Below, piece after piece: positions 7,636 through 18,987 of a DNA stretch of 45,821 nucleotides. The notes beneath the pieces were generated by a model that saw nothing but the letters and a program-made list of their open reading frames with translations, made no database searches and was not told where the DNA came from. Each line of letters begins with the position of its first letter. The stretch's first letter is position 1. The DNA lies in IMG/VR virus record IMGVR_UViG_2695420343_000003. One strand, written 5' to 3'. Source of the stretch: a virus (taxonomy: Duplodnaviria; Heunggongvirae; Uroviricota; Caudoviricetes). The translations under genes and the position numbers were made by a program.

Positions 7636-8059
7636 AATTATCTCCATTTTTACAAATGAATTTTGTCGATGCGGTGCCTGGTGCCTCCAGGTGACGTTAA
7701 CCAGTTAACAATTAACGCCGGATAATCCACCCATAACACTGATGCTTTTAACTGTTCCGCGTGCGCTTAGCCGCATTCACCGCATCACAAAATTCACTTT
7801 AAAAAGGGGCGGCAGGGCAGCCACGGAGTAGAACTGATGCCGCCAAAGACTACACAAAGCAATGTCGTTATTTACAACCGGAGGCGCACTCCCACCATTT
7901 AAATTTAACAGACAAGACCGACTCTTTATGGATACCGGAAATGCGCCTTCGTGTTGTGCCCGGTTTTATTTCACCACCTCCGGGCTTTGGTGGTATCTTT
8001 ACTGGAGTTCTCACACAACCAGTAAGGAAATGAATATGCCAACGTATCTCGCCAGAGTA

Positions 8060-8067
8060 GAACTATA
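8060..8067. repeat. IS1 target-site duplication, left copy (gaactata); right copy at 8836..8843
   Basis: Identical 8-bp direct repeat immediately flanking both IS1 ends. Confidence 0.75.
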
Positions 8068-8082
8068 GGTAATGACTCCAAC

Positions 8083-8586
8083 TTATTGATAGTGTTTTAT
8101 GTTCAGATAATGCCCGATGACTTTGTCATGCAGCTCCACCGATTTTGAGAACGACAGCGACTTCCGTCCCAGCCGTGCCAGGTGCTGCCTCAGATTCAGG
8201 TTATGCCGCTCAATTCGCTGCGTATATCGCTTGCTGATTACGTGCAGCTTTCCCTTCAGGCGGGATTCATACAGCGGCCAGCCATCCGTCATCCATATCA
8301 CCACGTCAAAGGGTGACAGCAGGCTCATAAGACGCCCCAGCGTCGCCATAGTGCGTTCACCGAATACGTGCGCAACAACCGTCTTCCGGAGCCTGTCATA
8401 CGCGTAAAACAGCCAGCGCTGGCGCGATTTAGCCCCGACGTATCCCCACTGTTCGTCCATTTCCGCGCAGACGATGACGTCACTGCCCGGCTGTATGCGC
8501 GAGGTTACCGACTGCGGCCTGAGTTTTTTAAATGGCGGAAAATCGTGTTGAGGCCAACGCCCATAATGCGGGCGGTTGCCCGGCAT
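8083..8586 (-). CDS. insB: IS1 transposase InsB
   Basis: 167-aa ORF matching recalled InsB ([30 protein letters not shown]…). Confidence 0.9.
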
Positions 8587-8780
8587 CCAACGCCATTCAT
8601 GGCCATATCAATGATTTTCTGGTGCGTACCGGGTTGAGAAGCGGTGTAAGTGAACTGCAGTTGCCATGTTTTACGGCAGTGAGAGCAGAGATAGCGCTGA
8701 TGTCCGGCGGTGCTTTTGCCGTTACGCACCACCCCGTCAGTAGCTGAACAGGAGGGACAGCTGATAGAAACAGAAGCCAC
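8505..8780 (-). CDS. insA: IS1 InsA
   Basis: 91-aa ORF matching recalled InsA ([43 protein letters not shown]…). Confidence 0.9.
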
Positions 8781-9078
8781 TGGAGCACCTCAAAAACACC
8801 ATCATACACTAAATCAGTAAGTTGGCAGCATCACCGAACTATATAATGCTGAGCCAGAGGATTACGAAGGGCTTCATAAATATATGCTCTCACTAGGATT
8901 CAGGAGAACGATCCCCCATGGAGATGGTTCGTATAATCAACTCCCGGACGGAACTTATGTTTCCGAAAAGGGCGGTGATATTTATCAAATTCGCAGCCAG
9001 ATATCTGACTATGCAGACCGACTATCCAGATATCGCGCGTCTGTTTTTGTTTGCGAATTCAGTCAATGCGCATGGTAT

Positions 9079-9282
9079 TTATACCCCGCCAAGACCCGGT
9101 GAATATCCTGCACGGCCTTCTGCTTTGTAGAAGGCTTCTTCGCTATCATTATCGCCAGATTCCAGCGCTTCTTTAGCCAGCCAGATGCGGGCTTCAGTGC
9201 CTGCATTTGGCTCCAGTTGCTGGAGGCGTTTTGCATCTTCTAGGAGTAGAGCGATAACGTGTTTTAATTCTGTCTCGTTCAT
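9079..9282 (-). CDS. Small hypothetical protein (YdaG-like)
   Basis: ORF MNETELKHVIALLLEDAKRLQQLEPNAGTEARIWLAKEALESGD…; downstream of repressor on same strand, as ydaG in Rac. Confidence 0.4.
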   Translation of the reverse strand: MNETELKHVIALLLEDAKRLQQLEPNAGTEARIWLAKEALESGDNDSEEAFYKAEGRAGYSPGLGGV

Positions 9283-9283
9283 T

Positions 9284-9439
9284 TTACTCACCTGAATGTC
9301 TTCCCAACCAGCGGCGTGCGCCAGCTTCGGTTTTAAACGTTTTGCTTTTGGTATACGTCATGGCGGTGAATGTGCCGTCCTGATTGGGAAACACGCCACA
9401 TACCAGAGATTCGTTGTTGCCAAGATCGATAGTATCCAT
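9284..9439 (-). CDS. Small hypothetical protein (YdaF-like, 51 aa)
   Basis: MDTIDLGNNESLVCGVFPNQDGTFTAMTYTKSKTFKTEAGARRWLGRHSGE resembles recalled Rac YdaF; start at internal Met of track ORF. Confidence 0.45.
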   Translation of the reverse strand: MDTIDLGNNESLVCGVFPNQDGTFTAMTYTKSKTFKTEAGARRWLGRHSGE

Positions 9440-9690
9440 GTTGACCTCATTTCCCCTTAACGCCGGGTGGCGGAACGTTTTATCTACTGCGCTTTGTATC
9501 AATCAACAACTGCCGTCATGTTCGTATGCCTCAGGCTGGCTACTTAGCCCTGTTCAGTGGCTGGATAACTCGAGGTATTGTCCAGCCGTTCTCTGGTGGG
9601 GCGTTGTTTGGATATGCTTATTAAACACAATGCGTTTTCTTATGTCAACACGAAATGTGTTTTGTGGTGAGTGTCATATGATGATGGTAC

Positions 9691-9714
9691 AAAAAAGCCC
9701 GCTGATAGCGGGCT
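9691..9714 (-). terminator. Rho-independent terminator after the repressor gene
   Basis: Minus-strand reading gives hairpin agcccgctatcagcgggct followed by TTTTTT. Confidence 0.55.
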
Positions 9715-11794: not shown

Positions 11795-12541
11795 ATGAAA
11801 AATATTGCGACAGGAGGCGTTCTGGAGCGTATCCGCAGACTGACCCCACCACATGTAACCGCCCCATTCAGAACGGTTGCGGAGTGGCGCGAGTGGCAAC
11901 TTGCTGAAGGCCAGAAACGTTGCGAGGAGATCAACCGCCTGAATCGTCAGTTGCGGGTGGAAAAAATCCTGAATCGCTCTGGCATCCAGCCGTTGCACCG
12001 CAAATGCTCGTTTGCGAATTACCAGGTGCAGAACGAAGGGCAGCGATACGCGTTAAGCCAGGCGAAATCCATCGCCGATGAACTGATGACCGGGTGTACA
12101 AATTTTGCGTTCAGCGGAAAACCTGGTACCGGGAAGAATCACTTAGCGGCAGCTATCGGGAATCGCCTGCTGAAAGACGGTCAGACAGTGATTGTGGTTA
12201 CCGTGGCTGATGTCATGAGCGCCCTGCACACCAGCTATGACGACGGGCAGTCAGGCGAAAAATTTTTGCGGGAGCTGTGCGAAGTGGATCTGCTGGTTCT
12301 TGATGAAATTGGCATTCAGCGCGAGACGAAAAACGAGCAGGTGGTACTGCACCAGATTATTGATCGACGGACAGCGTCGATGCGTAGCGTGGGAATGCTG
12401 ACAAACCTGAACTATGAGGCCATGAAAACATTGCTCGGCGAGAGGATTATGGATCGCATGACCATGAACGGCGGGTGTTGGGTGAATTTTAACTGGGAGA
12501 GCTGGCGTCCGAATGTCGTCCAGCCAGGAATTGCGAAGTGA
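11795..12541 (+). CDS. DnaC-like helicase loader (IstB-type AAA+ ATPase)
   Basis: Walker [12 protein letters not shown] and Walker [10 protein letters not shown]; 248 aa. Confidence 0.85.
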
Positions 12542-12564
12542 TTTTTACCGGGAGGAAATTTTAA

Positions 12565-13325
12565 TGGAGACTGTTTTTGACGCACTGAAAGCAATGGGAA
12601 AAGCCACGTCGGTAGAACTGGCTGCGCGACTTGATATCAGTCGTGAAGAGGTACTGAACGAGCTGTGGGAACTGAAAAAGGCTGGTTTCGTTGATAAAAG
12701 CGTATACACTTGGTGTGTGGCTGATAACAACGTTCAGCAGGAACAGCCAGAGCAGGCAGAACTGCCGGAAGAAACCACCACGGCAACAGTCGCGAAAATT
12801 TCGGAGTGCGATTTAACTGCGGCGATTGAACAACGTGGACCACAAACGGCGGATGAGTTGGCTACATTGTTCGGTACCACATCACGCAAAGTGGCTTCAA
12901 CGTTGGCAATGGCAATCAGCAAAGGTCGTCTGATTCGCGTAAATCAGGGCGGTAAATTTCGTTACTGCATACCGGGCGATAATTTACCAGCAGAGCCGAA
13001 AGCAGCATCGGTAGCGGAAACTGATGGTAAGGCCTTTCCTCAGCCCGCAGGTGTTGCGTTACCAGTACAGGAGGCTGCAACACAGGAAGATATTAAAACA
13101 GAAACTGTGGCGGACATTGTGCAGTCGCTGCCATCGTTTACTGAAACGCGAGCGGATGACCTGGTTTTACCATCACTGCATATGGCAAACCGCGAACTGC
13201 GTCGGGCGAAAAATCATGTCCAGAAGTGGGAGCGTGTCTGCGCCGCGCTGCGTGAGTTGAACAAGCACAGGGATATTGTACGACAGATTACTGATTCTTC
13301 CCGCCATGTTGCATCGGAAAAGTGA
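12565..13325 (+). CDS. Hypothetical phage protein (N-terminal winged-helix-like)
   Basis: ATG at 12565 with GGGAGG RBS; track ORF start at 12513 probably an over-extension. Confidence 0.5.
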
Positions 13326-13340
13326 TTGCCGGAGGCACCT

Positions 13341-13772
13341 ATGGCAAAAGTATTTACACCAGAAGAGCGGGAAAAAATTAAAGGGCAGGTTGTTGAACTT
13401 GTACGTCTGAGCGGTCGCGAGACGTTACGGGCTCTGGAGGCTAAAACCGGTGCATCAAGGTATTACATAAGCACTCTCGCCAGAGAACTGGTCGCCAGTG
13501 GTGATGTTTACAATTCAGGCTACGGATTATTCCCGTCTGAGCAGGCTCGTAAGGACTGGCAAAACGCCCGCAAAAAACTATCCAGGGCAAAGGTGAAAAA
13601 AACGGTTGTGGTTGATCCTGACCTTATCTGGTCATTACCAGACGGAGAAATACGCCGCTACGACAGGCGCCTGAATATAATCTGTCGCGAGTGCCGGAAA
13701 AGCGAAGTTATGCAGCGTGTACTGGCATTTTACCAGAGTAATTTCAGGAGGTTGTCTGGTGAGCACGATTAA
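13341..13772 (+). CDS. Hypothetical phage protein
   Basis: 143 aa from ATG with GGAGG RBS; C-terminal CxxC (CRECRK). Confidence 0.5.
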   Translation: MAKVFTPEEREKIKGQVVELVRLSGRETLRALEAKTGASRYYISTLARELVASGDVYNSGYGLFPSEQARKDWQNARKKLSRAKVKKTVVVDPDLIWSLPDGEIRRYDRRLNIICRECRKSEVMQRVLAFYQSNFRRLSGEHD

Positions 13773-13805
13773 CTACTAGGGGGGATAACAATAAAATAAA
13801 GCCTC

Positions 13806-14846
13806 CTAGGAGGCTTTGATTATATTAAGCAAATGTTTTCCAATCGTTTCAGACATCTTCGGAGGGACCGCATTTCCTATTTGACGAGCCCGAGATTGCA
13901 AAGAACCAATAAATTTATAATCCAAAGGAAATGTTTGTAGACACGCTGCTTCACGAACCGATATTGCTCGATTTTGTGTTGGATGTCCAAAACGTCCATT
14001 TGAATAGCTAATACAACGAGTTGTTAGTCCGCTGGCTGGTTTGTCCCAACTCAAACGTCCATATACGTCTGTATGCCCTTTATGGTTACGATGGCATTCT
14101 AAAATCAATTCATCTGGCCAAAATTCTCGACTTCCACCTTCAGGAGTGCATTTTATTCTACGTAAATTAAGCTCTGATAAGCGTGCAGCTTCATGATCAG
14201 GAATACTATTATGCTTTTCTCCTGCTTCTATCTTCGGTAAATTAGCGATCCAGTCCTTTACTGTTGAATAGGGAGTATTTCCAACCCCATGTGTAGGAGA
14301 AGGCAATGCGACATAAAAATCCTTGGATGCAATGAGCACTAATCTTTCTCGCGTCTGTGGTACACCGTACCACGCAGCTGGCATTACTTTATAATCTACA
14401 CTATATCCCTTTGATGAAAGCATTTCTAAAAACATCATGAATGTTCCTTCATTTTTGTTAAACTTTTGCATTCCTGGCACGTTTTCAACAAAAATAAAAT
14501 CAGGCATATAATGCTCTACAAAACGACTGAATTCCTTTAATAGATCTAATCGTGGATCATCATTTTTTTTATTTGAGTTTTGCTTAGAGTACGGTTGACA
14601 AGGCGCACATCCTGAAAAAAGAATGTAATCATTACGATGTTTTTTTACTAACTTGTTTATGGCATTGTTGTCGATTAACCTAATGTCCGAGTTAATAAAA
14701 GCAGCTTGCGGGAAATTTGCACGAAATGAACTGGCTGCATCAACGTCGAAATCGAGGCCAAAAACAATATCCATTCCAGCTTGATGGAAACCTTGGCTGG
14801 TTCCACCACAACCGGAAAAGAAGTCAAACACTTTGATTTTTTTCAT
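13806..14846 (-). CDS. DNA (cytosine-5)-methyltransferase (Dcm-like)
   Basis: C5-MTase motifs: I FDFFSGCGG, IV GCAPCQPYS (catalytic Cys), VI FVENVPGM, VIII QTRERLVLIA, X GNAVPP; AT-rich; 23 bp downstream of the ATPase gene on the same strand. Confidence 0.9.
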   Translation of the reverse strand: MKKIKVFDFFSGCGGTSQGFHQAGMDIVFGLDFDVDAASSFRANFPQAAFINSDIRLIDNNAINKLVKKHRNDYILFSGCAPCQPYSKQNSNKKNDDPRLDLLKEFSRFVEHYMPDFIFVENVPGMQKFNKNEGTFMMFLEMLSSKGYSVDYKVMPAAWYGVPQTRERLVLIASKDFYVALPSPTHGVGNTPYSTVKDWIANLPKIEAGEKHNSIPDHEAARLSELNLRRIKCTPEGGSREFWPDELILECHRNHKGHTDVYGRLSWDKPASGLTTRCISYSNGRFGHPTQNRAISVREAACLQTFPLDYKFIGSLQSRARQIGNAVPPKMSETIGKHLLNIIKAS

Positions 14847-14869
14847 TTTTCCCTCTGCATCCAGAATCA

Positions 14870-16699
14870 CTATCTAATGATACCACGGTCAAGAGCCTGA
14901 GTAATTATTTTTCTTATTTTTATAAATTCAGGCAATTCATTTTTAAGTCTTGCGGTCATCATTTGTTGGAGGCAAAAAATTTCCTCTGCATTTACTTCTT
15001 CTTTATCATACAGGTGTTGCGCTAATAATCTTATTTGATTCTTATACAGCTCTGGATCATTAGAACTCCAGGTCTGTGAATCAATTATTTCTTTTTCACT
15101 TGGCGTAATTGCCTTTTCAATGAGTAATTGTTCGGGAGTATCAAATGGTAAATACTGCACTTTATTGAATGCATACTCAAGCACTTGCCTTTTGAGTCTA
15201 TTAGATTCTTGTTCATTTTTTTTGCCATTACTACCACTGGCATTGATAATTAACTCGCAACCATAATATTTGCACATTGTATTAACTAAATCAGCATCAG
15301 CAATTTCACTAATTCTTACTGGTTTTATTTTTTTGTTTTTATCACCATCAAGTAAAAACAAAATATCATTGCGTTCTACCACAGCGTAACTGGGAAGATG
15401 CTTGCTTAAAATTGTCTCCGAACCACCTGGTATATAACTTACACTAAATGATAAACTTAATCTTTCATAATTTTTAATCGCTTTATCTATAATTGCTTTA
15501 GCTAATTTATCTTCTACAATTATTGTTTTCTTGTTAATATCATGCCCTAGCTCTATAAAAGCTTCATCCGGTGCTATATTTTGAACTATTTTAGCTGTTT
15601 CACTCTCTTCATCAAAAACAAATAATTTAATAGCATCTTTGGGAAGAGTGTTCACAATAACAGGAGAATGGGTTGATATTACCACTTGATGTTTTTTCTG
15701 CTCAACAATAGAGTACAGAACATCCATCATCCTTTTCTGTGCACCAGGGTGAAGTGAAACTTCTGGTTCGTCAAGAAGAATTAATGAATTAGGTTTGGCC
15801 GAATAAATATTGAGTATTAGTGAAACTATTGCAAATTCACCACTTCCAGCAAAAGCTTCTGTATAGTTCAACTTATCAGTTGAAAGTAAAGCGGTTCCTC
15901 CTCTGGTTCCAAATAACCGATGCTCAAGAAATTTAATGACTTTATATTTTTTTCCTAATATAAATGAGACGTGCTCAACTAGTTCTGGCGCCAAGGTTAT
16001 ATTTTTAACAATGGTTTCCGTCCCCCAAAGTCTTAAATTATTTAGCTTTTCATCAAAAGCTTTCTTTATATATTTAGATTTGCTTCTGATATAGTCTTGC
16101 TTTGTAATTAATACACCACTCTTCTTCTTTCTTAATTTAAAATCAGAGTGATACATACATCTATCAAATGCACTTATTTCCGATCTGAAATCTAGGAAAA
16201 CCAATCCCTTCTTGATTTTTTTCCATCTGGTTGCATTACTATTAGCACCCAGATCATCCGAAATACTCTCCATGTTATCACCAACAGATGGTCGACTTGT
16301 TTCCCAATAATCGATTGTTTTCTTGGTAGCATTGATACGCGCTTGGAGTATTTCAACTAAACGGCCATCAGCATTTTTATATCCATATATATATCTAGGC
16401 TTAAGAGAACTGCCATCAGCAAGTTTTAGGTCAGGAAACTCATCTGTTTCAGTTGTGAACCAATAACGAGTTATATTTTTACCATGTGGGCAACCAAATA
16501 GCGCTTTGATAACAGAACTTTTATTAGTTCCATTTTTTCCTACTAAAGCCGTTATAGGGAACTGAAAATCGATCCTTGCATTCTGCTCTATATTTTTAAA
16601 GTATGGAAAACGGATATGTTGTATGAATGGTTCAAATTCACCGTTTTTTAACGCGCACTGGAGTGTTCGAATTTTGCTCTTGTATGCGGAAGTGCTCAT
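14870..16699 (-). CDS. OLD-family ATP-dependent nuclease (ABC-type ATPase + Toprim-like domain)
   Basis: Walker A LVGKNGTNKSS, signature-like AGSGEF, Walker B LILLDEPEVSLHP, H-loop ISTHSP; C-terminal Toprim-like motifs TIIVEDK and FLLDGDKN; very AT-rich. Confidence 0.8.
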   Translation of the reverse strand: MSTSAYKSKIRTLQCALKNGEFEPFIQHIRFPYFKNIEQNARIDFQFPITALVGKNGTNKSSVIKALFGCPHGKNITRYWFTTETDEFPDLKLADGSSLKPRYIYGYKNADGRLVEILQARINATKKTIDYWETSRPSVGDNMESISDDLGANSNATRWKKIKKGLVFLDFRSEISAFDRCMYHSDFKLRKKKSGVLITKQDYIRSKSKYIKKAFDEKLNNLRLWGTETIVKNITLAPELVEHVSFILGKKYKVIKFLEHRLFGTRGGTALLSTDKLNYTEAFAGSGEFAIVSLILNIYSAKPNSLILLDEPEVSLHPGAQKRMMDVLYSIVEQKKHQVVISTHSPVIVNTLPKDAIKLFVFDEESETAKIVQNIAPDEAFIELGHDINKKTIIVEDKLAKAIIDKAIKNYERLSLSFSVSYIPGGSETILSKHLPSYAVVERNDILFLLDGDKNKKIKPVRISEIADADLVNTMCKYYGCELIINASGSNGKKNEQESNRLKRQVLEYAFNKVQYLPFDTPEQLLIEKAITPSEKEIIDSQTWSSNDPELYKNQIRLLAQHLYDKEEVNAEEIFCLQQMMTARLKNELPEFIKIRKIITQALDRGIIR

Positions 16700-16847
16700 T
16701 GTTTACTAAAGTCCATAATAGGCTATTAACAGGTTGAGGATGACATGATAGCGATTTTTAATGCAGATAAAAGAGGTTTGTTGGTTAGCACACAACAGAA
16801 AAAGTGACCTTACCGCTTGAACGAAAGGTAAGGGTAAGTAGGCTGTG

Positions 16848-17000
16848 ATGCAGCAAAAGGCGATGTTAATCGCCCTGATCGTCATCTGTTTAACCGTCGT
16901 TGTGACGGCACTGGTAACGAGGAAAGACATCTGCGAGGTACGAATCCGAACCGGCCAGACGGAGGTCGCTGTCTTCACAGCTTACGAACCTGAGGAGTAA
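16848..17000 (+). CDS. hok: Hok/Gef-family type I toxin (50 aa)
   Basis: Hand-translated: MQQKAMLIALIVICLTVVVTALVTRKDICEVRIRTGQTEVAVFTAYEPEE, near-identical to recalled HokD/RelF; short upstream ORF ends TGATG-coupled to the start (mok-like). Confidence 0.8.
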   Translation: MQQKAMLIALIVICLTVVVTALVTRKDICEVRIRTGQTEVAVFTAYEPEE

Positions 17001-17067
17001 GAGACCCGGCGGAGGAGAAATCCCCCGCCACCTCTGATGTGTCAGGCATCCTCAACGCACCCGTACT

Positions 17068-17089
17068 TAGCCGCTTCGGCGGGTTTTTT
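17068..17089 (+). terminator. Terminator at 3' end of hok mRNA
   Basis: gccgcttcggcggg hairpin + TTTTTT. Confidence 0.65.
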
Positions 17090-17274
17090 GTTGCGCGCTG
17101 AATACGCAGGGTGAAAAATAACCATATATTTGATTATATACACAACAAAAAATAAAAGTCATTGTACCTGCACATTAAATAATCAAATATACGGCGTGAA
17201 ATAAATATTTTTCAGATTAATATTTTTGTCTCTATGTGGATATAACCGTTTGTACTTATAAACTCGGAGGCATC

Positions 17275-17487
17275 GTGGAAAAAATAAAGAAACTATTTAG
17301 TTGTAAATACGCAGTCATACGTCGTGATGACCTGTCAGTTATAGTCGAAATGGATTACTTCCCTGAAACCCCAAAATCAATGATGTATCGTAATGGTCGA
17401 AAGGCAATTTTTTTACCGATGAGGGTAAGTGACATTATGGGAAATGATAAACTGCTGGATGAATTGCGAGTCAGAGCATCCTGTTAG
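17275..17487 (+). CDS. Hypothetical small phage protein
   Basis: GTG start preceded by GGAGG (alternative ATG at 17236 lacks an RBS); 70 aa. Confidence 0.4.
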   Translation: MEKIKKLFSCKYAVIRRDDLSVIVEMDYFPETPKSMMYRNGRKAIFLPMRVSDIMGNDKLLDELRVRASC

Positions 17488-17558
17488 TATTGGCATTAAT
17501 TCTGGTATACTACATAACGGGCTGAACACCCATTCTACTGCGCCAGCGGAGAACTACG

Positions 17559-18158
17559 ATGGCGCATATACAACTGGTCAAACAAACCTCTTCCGGATTA
17601 CTTCTCCCGGCGACGCCGGAGAGTTGCGATTTTTTGCATCAAATCAAAATAGGTGAGTGGATACACGCAGACTTTAAGCGTGTGCGTAACTACGCATTCC
17701 ATAAGCGTTTTTTCAAACTTCTGCAACTCGGATTCGATTACTGGACTCCGGTCGGTGGGGCGATCACTCCTCGCGAGCTAAAACTGGTGTCCGGTTTCGT
17801 TGATTATCTGTGCGAATCAGTAGGCCGGGAACATACGCCAGCTCTGAGCGAAGCCGCAGAGCAATATCTGAATACAGTTGCGACACACAGAACCCGAGAT
17901 ACAGCATTGCTAAAGTCGTTTGAGGCTTTCCGCGAGTGGGTAACCATTCAGGCCGGATTTTACACCGAGCATATTTATCCGGACGGTAGCCGTGGGCGCA
18001 GGGCGAAATCCATCTCGTTTGCGAATATGGACGAAACCGAGTTTCAGCAGGTTTATAAATCTGTACTGAATGTGCTGTGGAACTGGATCCTGTTCCGTAA
18101 ATTTTCCTCTCCGGAGGAAGTCGAAAATGTGGCTGCGCGGTTACTGGAGTTTGCGTAA
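17559..18158 (+). CDS. Nin-region phage protein (DUF1367-like), hypothetical
   Basis: 199 aa; GGAGAA RBS; located just upstream of a YbcO-like gene. Confidence 0.5.
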   Translation: MAHIQLVKQTSSGLLLPATPESCDFLHQIKIGEWIHADFKRVRNYAFHKRFFKLLQLGFDYWTPVGGAITPRELKLVSGFVDYLCESVGREHTPALSEAAEQYLNTVATHRTRDTALLKSFEAFREWVTIQAGFYTEHIYPDGSRGRRAKSISFANMDETEFQQVYKSVLNVLWNWILFRKFSSPEEVENVAARLLEFA

Positions 18159-18448
18159 TGGTGGATTTACGTAAAGCGGCGCAGGGGCAGATGTGCACCG
18201 TCAGAATTCCTGGCTACTGCAATCACAATCCCGAAACATCTGTGCTGGCGCATTACAGGCTGGCGGGGACGTGCGGAACAGCGACAAAACCACACGATAT
18301 GCAGGCAGCGATTGCCTGCAGCTCATGCCACGATTTAATCGACGGGCGGGTAAAAACCAGCGATTACACCAAAGAAGAATTACGCCTGATGCATGCAGAA
18401 GGTGTTTTTCGCACACAAGAAATCTGGAGAAAGGAAGGTTATTTATGA
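18158..18448 (+). CDS. YbcO-like putative nuclease (DUF1364)
   Basis: 96 aa; MVDLRKAAQGQMCTVRIPGYCNHNPETSVLAHYRLAGTCGTATKPHD…ACSSCHD resembles recalled DLP12 YbcO. Confidence 0.7.
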   Translation: MVDLRKAAQGQMCTVRIPGYCNHNPETSVLAHYRLAGTCGTATKPHDMQAAIACSSCHDLIDGRVKTSDYTKEELRLMHAEGVFRTQEIWRKEGYL

Positions 18449-18987
18449 TTTACCCAACAAATACAGGCAAAAGCGGGGAACACCTTCGTCTCACCACGCT
18501 GGAAAGTGTCTGGATTCAGGGAAAACTGCGCATGTGGGGGCGCTGGTCGTATATTGGCGGCGGTAAGACGGGAAATATGTTTAACCAGTTGCTGGCATCC
18601 AAAAAATTGACGAAAACAGCCGTCAACGAAGCCCTGCGCAGGATGAAAAAAGCAGGTCTGGACAAACCTGAACTTGAGGCTTTTTTGCGGGATATGATCA
18701 ACGGCAAGCAAAAAAGCTGGCTGGTGCATTGTACTGATGCAGAGGCGTTATGTATTGATAGAGTCATAAGTGAGGTGCTGGCAGAGCATCCTGGATTGAT
18801 TAGTGTCCTCCGGCAACGGTATGAAGGGCGGGGGATGACTAAGCGCAAAATGGCTGAATTGCTAAATGATGTACATCCTGAGTGGTGTTTTAGCACATGC
18901 GAAAAGCGAATTGCTAATTGGTTGGCTGTTGCTGAGTATGCCCTATATATTCCCATGCGAGAATCATTTGCTCAAAAAATAGCTTGA
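18445..18987 (+). CDS. Putative late-gene antiterminator (Q-like)
   Basis: 180 aa, last gene before the lysis region; TTATGA overlap with the YbcO-like gene; call is positional, not motif-based. Confidence 0.4.
   Translation: MIYPTNTGKSGEHLRLTTLESVWIQGKLRMWGRWSYIGGGKTGNMFNQLLASKKLTKTAVNEALRRMKKAGLDKPELEAFLRDMINGKQKSWLVHCTDAEALCIDRVISEVLAEHPGLISVLRQRYEGRGMTKRKMAELLNDVHPEWCFSTCEKRIANWLAVAEYALYIPMRESFAQKIA

Follow-up and report, generated by a model that had tools for sequence, protein, structure and literature searches.

When a gene for an OLD-like nuclease lies directly beside a gene for a C5-cytosine DNA methyltransferase, the question arises whether the two constitute a single functional system and, if so, how such a system would operate. 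This question is raised by the IMG/VR virus record IMGVR_UViG_2695420343_000003, a stretch of 45,821 nucleotides (nt; hereafter the window) which is a Rac-like lambdoid prophage of Escherichia coli. The open reading frames (ORFs) of its minus strand include a gene for an ATPase-Toprim protein of 609 amino acids (aa) (14870..16699; RefSeq WP_000107695), followed by a gene for a C5-methylase of 346 aa that contains all catalytic motifs (13806..14846; RefSeq WP_000721512). RefSeq labels these products 'ATP-dependent nuclease' and 'DNA cytosine methyltransferase', and nothing further. Our analysis demonstrates that the two genes are co-inherited as one mobile cassette and that their pairing is not due to chance. 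Given its recurrence in many bacterial phyla, the cassette is probably a candidate restriction-modification (R-M)-like defence system, widespread and conserved, that is built on an OLD nuclease.

Co-inheritance of the nuclease and methylase genes

The pairing was followed in a census of one genome per species (GTDB), for which the ATPase alone served as query and the methylase was sought by tblastn, with the methylase of the window, within the fetched flanks. This census yielded 80 loci from Gamma-, Beta-, Alpha- and Zetaproteobacteria, Actinomycetota, Bacillota, Bacteroidota, Acidobacteriota, Planctomycetota, Nitrospirota, Fibrobacterota, Patescibacteria and others, and a C5-methylase was present in the flanks of 77 of them. 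A close methylase homologue (34-72% identity, full length) was located on the same strand and at most 400 bp away in 56 of the 80 loci, downstream of the ATPase gene in 32 and upstream in 24, with the gene order of the pair shuffled between lineages. The adjacent methylase is on the opposite strand in two further loci and is cut by a contig end in one, nine loci possess a close homologue at a distance of 1.7-4.9 kilobases (kb) with GHKL-type genes in between, and another nine have a C5-methylase of a different clade nearby. In the three loci where no methylase was found within the flanks, L031 and L058 are contig-edge cases and L024 is a real absence, which makes it the sole real exception to the pairing; the apparent exceptions L111, L139 and L140 likewise proved to be contig ends. 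C5-methylase genes are rare, with about one per genome, and chance adjacency would be well under 1%.

An independent scan of IMG/VR revealed 64 viral-contig loci, about a dozen of which represent the same E. coli prophage and are not independent. An adjacent methylase is present in 58, every evaluable locus having one, and the remaining loci are contig-end truncations, one fetch-limit truncation (L144) and two with frameshifted ATPases. An upstream pair of ORFs in L144 (595 and 347 aa) that had been considered as a second cassette turned out to be terminase and portal genes. The reverse search, starting from methylase homologues with 78%, 67% and 63% identity, found an ATPase gene immediately upstream in nine of nine places (594-609 aa, AAA_15/AAA_21). 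Furthermore, the pairwise identities of the two proteins correlate (Mantel r = 0.61, a value reached by 0 of 2000 permutations), and 32 of 5,426 complete E. coli genomes, that of the widely used laboratory strain ATCC 8739 included, hold the cassette of the window at ≥99% identity, with both genes present in all 32. The original prediction had named conserved linkage across genomes as a check on its proposal, and this linkage is overwhelming in both search directions. Decayed copies were seen only in the viral contigs L141 (5001-7873) and L158 (5001-7815), in which a frameshifted ATPase-Toprim gene stands beside an intact methylase, and there is no clear converse case apart from L024.

Architecture of the ATPase-Toprim protein

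The ABC ATPase head of the 609-aa protein (residues 1 to ~372; 15584..16699, minus strand) bears Walker A (G54-K60-S61), signature (S286-G287), Walker B (D310-E311) and H-loop (H344) elements, and over the N-terminal 370 residues it is matched by the Pfam models AAA_15 (7e-21) and AAA_21 (1e-19). The head is followed by a Toprim and C-terminal helical region (residues ~388-609; 14873..15538, minus strand) with E396-D397, D451-G452-D453, E523 and K553. Every motif quoted in the original prediction is present in the translations, namely LVGKNGTNKSS, AGSGEF, LILLDEPEVSLHP, ISTHSP, TIIVEDK and FLLDGDKN in this protein and FSGCGG, PCQ, ENV, QTRER and GNAVPP in the methylase.

No Pfam model calls Toprim in the protein, and its last 240 residues are recognised by none of the sequence libraries searched; for this reason residues 365-609 were also modelled on their own. 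The AlphaFold2 (AF2) model of the whole protein has a pLDDT (predicted local distance difference test) score of 85 and the separate C-terminal model one of 89.6, and the top five Foldseek matches of the latter include GajA and the C-terminal regions of Xanthomonas and Burkholderia OLD proteins (probability 0.99-1.00). Two structure-comparison methods agree in ranking OLD and GajA C-terminal regions at the top, with modest scores, and AriA and AriB are also among the structural matches; the best PDB sequence match of the protein is TsOLD. Among 80 family members of 31-63% identity, E396-D397, D451-G-D453, E523 and K553 are invariant or nearly so, as are Walker A, the signature, Walker B and the H-loop, and the catalytic residues of both domains are invariant in 79-80 of the 80 sequences. 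The Toprim assignment is thus supported by structure comparison and by the invariant acidic residues, and the models confirm the OLD-like architecture, ABC ATPase followed by Toprim, that had been read from the motifs.

The best PADLOC models are HEC-04 (6e-35, residues 232-459 only) and then ATPase-Toprim_I-B (7e-27); the Old (1.7e-16) and GajA (2e-16) models of PADLOC match only the Walker B/H-loop stretch (residues ~300-370), and a full-length match to curated Old or GajA sequence models was not obtained. No NCBIfam model passes its cut-off for this protein. The family is discrete, with 374 clusters at E ≤ 1e-30 among 1.84 billion 50%-identity representatives, compared to 9,105 at E ≤ 1e-3, a number that includes other ABC ATPases.

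The C5-methylase and its possible target

The prediction that the downstream gene encodes a C5-methylase is upheld by its matches to PF00145 (DNA_methylase, 4.9e-61), TIGR00675 (1.4e-48) and the PADLOC model MTase_II (1.3e-96). Motifs I, IV (PCQ), VI (ENV), VIII and X are conserved, PCQ, ENV and GN are invariant in 55 paired homologues, and by its motif content the enzyme is predicted to be catalytically competent. The target-recognition (variable) region is as conserved as the catalytic core, with an identity to the window of 0.58-0.74 in the close group, suggesting that this methylase family is likely to have a single or narrow specificity. The best PDB sequence matches are to eukaryotic DNMT1 (4.5e-39 for the whole protein) and include a second stretch, residues 224-341, that covers the C-terminal motifs and, in part, the target-recognition region, and the matches to M.HaeIII and M.HhaI are far weaker and confined to the N-terminal part. 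Because the target-recognition region is conserved family-wide and DNMT1-like, it hints at a target that contains CpG, although this is only a lead. The methylase may belong to the bacterial clade nearest DNMT1.

Gene layout and prophage slots

The description of two minus-strand genes 23 nt apart is borne out by the junction sequence, in which the ATPase stop codon occupies 14870-14872 and is separated from the methylase ATG by a spacer (14847..14869, minus strand) with a GAGGG ribosome-binding site for the methylase; the shortness of this spacer implies cotranscription of both genes. As called, the methylase ORF spans 13806..14870 (minus strand), and its most likely start is the ATG at 14846 behind the GAGGG Shine-Dalgarno sequence, which yields a protein of 346 aa, in agreement with WP_000721512, instead of the 347 aa given initially. 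An in-frame GTG (14868-14872 of the window) overlaps the ATPase stop codon (TAGTG) and would make a 354-aa methylase that is translationally coupled to the nuclease, but of the two starts the ATG looks the likelier. At the other end of the cassette, a GC-rich hairpin with T-runs on both strands (13797..13818), identified by a consensus scan as a pattern match only, overlaps the methylase stop codon and looks like a bidirectional terminator for the cassette and the convergent DUF977 gene.

The prophage gene order runs from integrase, recET, kilR and replication genes to the cassette, hokD and the nin-region genes, and a region of strain RM8385 that is 99.8% identical to the window adjoins yebY. 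The cassette had been described as AT-rich by eye, and computation agrees, with a GC content of 0.33-0.34 over 14501-16500 versus 0.48-0.55 in the flanks. Homology to the related E. coli prophage L087 (blastn) stops at 13737 and restarts at 16900, and L087 (5038-6803) holds a ParA-family gene in the slot occupied by the cassette in the window. Therefore, the site between the DUF977 gene and hok is one at which genes are swapped, and the cassette is a moron in this variable slot (13738..16899), which takes in the GC trough and comprises, in addition to the cassette, the 5' part of hokD. The hokD toxin gene (Hok/Gef family; 16845-17000, plus strand) is situated directly upstream of the cassette, and the comparator prophage L087 retains only a 3' Hok fragment.

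In Enterobacter and Yersinia (L088-L093, 2148-5071) the cassette is found at the prophage edge directly beside integrase and excisionase genes, so that the pair is seen to travel as a unit among no fewer than three different prophage slots. A second E. coli subfamily, with a 39% identical ATPase, a methylase of 346-349 aa and a 3-nt gap between the called genes, is recorded in 520 blocks of the assembly index and occupies a different prophage slot. This subfamily (L082-L086, 6001-8835; L094-L096, 2212-5050) is much commoner in Enterobacteriaceae; it is inserted in antisense orientation, with the Q antiterminator on one side and the lysis genes on the other, in the position of the Shiga-toxin moron, and in Klebsiella it adjoins a HicAB pair. 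No nucleotide or protein match to the cassette was obtained in 50,697 isolated-phage records, and plasmids gave one weak match only.

Extended variants of the cassette

The window contains the minimal two-gene form only, with no GHKL gene, and clustering of neighbouring ORFs followed by Pfam annotation revealed that other lineages possess longer versions. The original claim that the C5-methylase is the sole partner of the nuclease thus stands for most loci and fails for those relatives that add Vsr, GHKL-HEPN or GHKL-kinase/receiver genes, or that adjoin an HpaII system. A Vsr gene is adjacent in 18 loci, and about eight loci encode a 547-aa protein with GHKL (HATPase_c_3) and Hypoth_Ymh domains. 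In L030, L033, L034 and L038 (e.g. L033, 491-5433) a four-gene operon consists of methylase, ABC-Toprim, GHKL plus Hypoth_Ymh (HEPN) and Vsr genes, and this GHKL-Ymh/Vsr operon looks like a layered form of the cassette. Ymh is a HEPN family, and it has been proposed that paraMORC-HEPN fusions act as PrrC analogues in R-M loci (PMC3710099; PMC2292703). Bacteroidota and one viral contig encode a different addition, a protein of ~1000 aa with GHKL, HEF_HK and HATPase_c domains together with a Response_reg_2 protein; in L045, L062, L075, L054 and L144 (e.g. L075, 2163-9782) these two genes lie between the methylase and the ABC-Toprim gene, which suggests signalling-coupled control.

Comparison with known defence systems

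OLD proteins have been grouped by genomic context into stand-alone (Class 1), GajB-associated (Class 2), retron-linked (Class 3), split (Class 4, PARIS) and archaeal Cran1 (Class 5) types, and their phylogeny lists ten further uncharacterised clades (U1-U10) with no methylase link described (PMC12796447). The cassette nuclease resembles Class 1 (P2 Old, Thermus TsOLD and Vibrio OLD) and Class 2 (GajA) in its N-terminal ABC ATPase and C-terminal Toprim/helical region, and shares with them the catalytic Glu and the DxD motif. However, Class 1 has no partner, whereas the cassette nuclease has a C5-methylase, and Class 2 (Gabija) has the UvrD/PcrA-like helicase GajB, whereas the cassette is flanked in the window by the DUF977 gene and hokD. 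In Class 4 AriA and AriB are separate polypeptides, in contrast to the single fused protein of the cassette, of which AriA models match the ATPase part only. Class 3, or retron type I-B, provides the second-best PADLOC model (7e-27, aligned residues 41-464); no reverse transcriptase ORF is present near the cassette and Rfam finds no family in 12500-18500, and the involvement of a retron or non-coding RNA was ruled out on these grounds. The cassette fits none of the published OLD context classes 1-5.

The closest tested relative is HEC-04/IbfA, which has the same fused ABC-ATPase-Toprim architecture and is a single gene of ~500 aa, whereas the cassette nuclease has 609 aa and is tied to a methylase; the match to the HEC-04 profile is partial (positions 160-383 of 494, 45% of the profile). 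Type II and III R-M systems with 5-methylcytosine methylases, such as HpaII, share with the cassette a tightly linked methylase and nuclease that move as a unit, a shuffled gene order, a methylase that is more conserved than the nuclease, the frequent proximity of Vsr and an association with mobile elements. Although the nuclease gene is linked to and co-inherited with its methylase as in R-M systems, the Toprim fold of its product lies outside the catalogued restriction folds (PD-(D/E)XK, HNH, GIY-YIG, PLD and half-pipe), and no catalogued restriction enzyme combines Toprim with an ABC ATPase. ATP dependence would make the cassette similar to Types I and III, although it is devoid of a helicase-like motor. 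PrrC-EcoprrI and PARIS (AriA/AriB) also couple an ABC ATPase to a nuclease, within or guarding R-M functions, but they sense anti-restriction proteins and cut tRNA, whereas the cassette has a constant intact methylase and usually no restriction enzyme.

The paraMORC (GHKL) R-M loci such as HgiDII and NmeAIP are related through their methylase clade and through the GHKL-Ymh and GHKL-kinase genes of the extended cassettes. One methylase homologue bears the best-hit name 'Modification methylase HgiDII' (M.HgiDII), and GTCGAC as the methylase target is a guess. The N-terminus of R.HgiDII is GHKL (PMC2441816), whereas the cassette protein is an ABC ATPase; identity with the known HgiDII system was rejected, R.HgiDII being a GHKL protein with an unassigned C-terminus and the name a best-hit label. 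PADLOC, NCBIfam, Pfam and PHROGs do not provide a system-level match for the pair, the PHROGs match being phrog_3940, annotated as 'unknown function', and the homology searches proposed at the outset thus place it in no characterised system, the HEC-04 match being partial and to a single-gene system. The OLD-methylase pair is not described in the literature searched; Krishnan et al. 2020 and REBASE were outside its scope and a prior computational mention is possible.

A proposed restriction-modification mechanism and its alternatives

Because the two genes are co-inherited and co-diverge, keep three catalytic centres, occur with Vsr and on mobile elements and decay through loss of the nuclease only, R-M is the simplest model, and we lean, with moderate confidence, towards a cassette that works as an R-M system with the Toprim nuclease as its restriction subunit. 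The cassette would be expressed from the prophage, and the methylase would place 5-methylcytosine on a fixed short target, probably containing CpG, in host and prophage DNA. The ABC-ATPase/Toprim protein, which like other OLD enzymes is probably a dimer or higher oligomer gated by ATP, would nick or cut incoming DNA that lacks this methyl mark, and the methylase may double as a specificity or partner subunit, in the manner of Mod in Type III systems. A prophage that carries such a cassette would be stabilised by it and would keep out superinfecting phages. In most loci no nuclease other than the Toprim protein is present, and the adjacency of Vsr, a repair nuclease for 5-methylcytosine deamination, implies that the methylase is constitutively active. 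The loss of the nuclease with retention of the methylase in L141 and L158 is the asymmetry that a nuclease would show if it were dangerous unless accompanied by the methylase. GajA, Vibrio Class 1 OLD and retron Eco8 are reported to cut or nick DNA, and it has been shown that defence by HEC-04 requires Walker A and the Toprim metal site.

Several observations weigh against a restriction role. In L024 (Agromyces, 7806-9713) an intact ATPase with all catalytic residues has no C5-methylase within 8 kb on either side. In seven Flavobacteriia loci (L040, L047, L052, L060, L061, L064 and L065; e.g. L040, 1623-5712) a complete HpaII-type methylase-endonuclease pair (RE_HpaII, 5e-143) is located directly upstream of the ATPase gene; here the ATPase-Toprim protein cannot act as the only restriction enzyme and has more the look of an accessory, and no other observation hints as strongly at an accessory or sentinel role. 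Toprim is absent from the known restriction-enzyme folds in a 2008 catalogue of Type II enzymes (PMC2441816), and the words 'toprim' and 'OLD' each occur zero times in the text of a 2025 R-M review (PMC12707154). Finally, some OLD-type Toprim nucleases are abortive tRNases and not DNases, as is the case for AriB and, according to a 2026 preprint, for P2 Old.

The main rival explanation is a PrrC/PARIS-like abortive-infection sentinel, in which the ABC-ATPase/Toprim protein would be a latent toxin, for example a tRNase, restrained by the methylase or by normal methylation and released when a phage interferes (through anti-restriction proteins, depletion of S-adenosylmethionine or inhibition of the methylase, for example), with the result that the infected cell is killed or arrested. 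PrrC, RloC, PARIS and P2 Old, which cut tRNA, are indeed built from an ABC ATPase joined to a nuclease, AriA and AriB are among the structural matches, HEC-04 is toxic upon induction, and the family adjoins both the complete HpaII system in the seven loci above and GHKL-HEPN (Ymh) proteins, for which a role as PrrC analogues has been proposed. However, the methylase is the only partner in at least 56 of the 80 genome loci, which leaves no restriction enzyme to guard, and the invariant methylase motifs and frequent Vsr point to real and continuous DNA methylation instead of a purely regulatory partner. Decay in which the nuclease goes and the methylase stays is compatible with R-M and sentinel alike, and on balance a sentinel role appears unlikely to us, if worth serious consideration.

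Much less probable is a methylation-linked DNA surveillance or repair module, in which a MutS-like ABC ATPase and a MutL-like GHKL protein would, together with Vsr, process the lesions that arise from the 5-methylcytosine of the cassette itself. This idea draws on the extended variants, where methylase, ABC-Toprim, GHKL and Vsr genes are united in a single operon, and on the fact that MutS belongs to the ABC ATPases and MutL, which stimulates Vsr, to the GHKL ATPases (PMC2292703). It is at odds with the minimal and commonest form, which is devoid of GHKL and Vsr, with the position of the cassette in prophage moron slots and beside integrases, with its low GC content and shifting between slots, and with the fact that the nearest characterised relatives are all anti-phage effectors. 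The original fallback was that of two unrelated neighbours, an orphan or anti-restriction methylase and a stand-alone (Class 1-type) OLD abortive-infection gene. Each gene type does occur alone elsewhere, and orphan methylases are frequent in lambdoid prophages (such as the Dam gene in L082), but across phyla, and whichever of the two genes the search starts from, almost all evaluable loci have them adjacent, their products co-diverge, and in the 32 E. coli genomes the genes are never apart. Because of these co-occurrence data this fallback is effectively refuted, and we consider it the least credible of the explanations.

Implications for OLD nucleases and restriction-modification

Beyond the R-M interpretation as such, it is tentatively proposed, with somewhat less than even confidence, that the cassette represents a sixth context class of OLD nucleases and at the same time a new class of restriction enzyme, an ATP-gated Toprim endonuclease. 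In such a class, self and non-self may be told apart through a dedicated, co-evolving DNMT1-like C5-methylase, which is possibly also the DNA-recognition subunit. The class would have been spread by prophages and genomic islands over at least ten bacterial phyla, and some lineages would have added GHKL-HEPN or GHKL-kinase/receiver modules as a second layer.

All catalogued restriction enzymes use one of five nuclease folds, none of which is Toprim; if the R-M interpretation is true, the cassette adds a new type of enzyme to this repertoire. OLD nucleases, on the other hand, have so far been seen as stand-alone, helicase-linked, retron-linked or split (PARIS) effectors, and a strict tie to a C5-methylase would, if true, explain in a simple way how one branch of the OLD family discriminates between self and foreign DNA.

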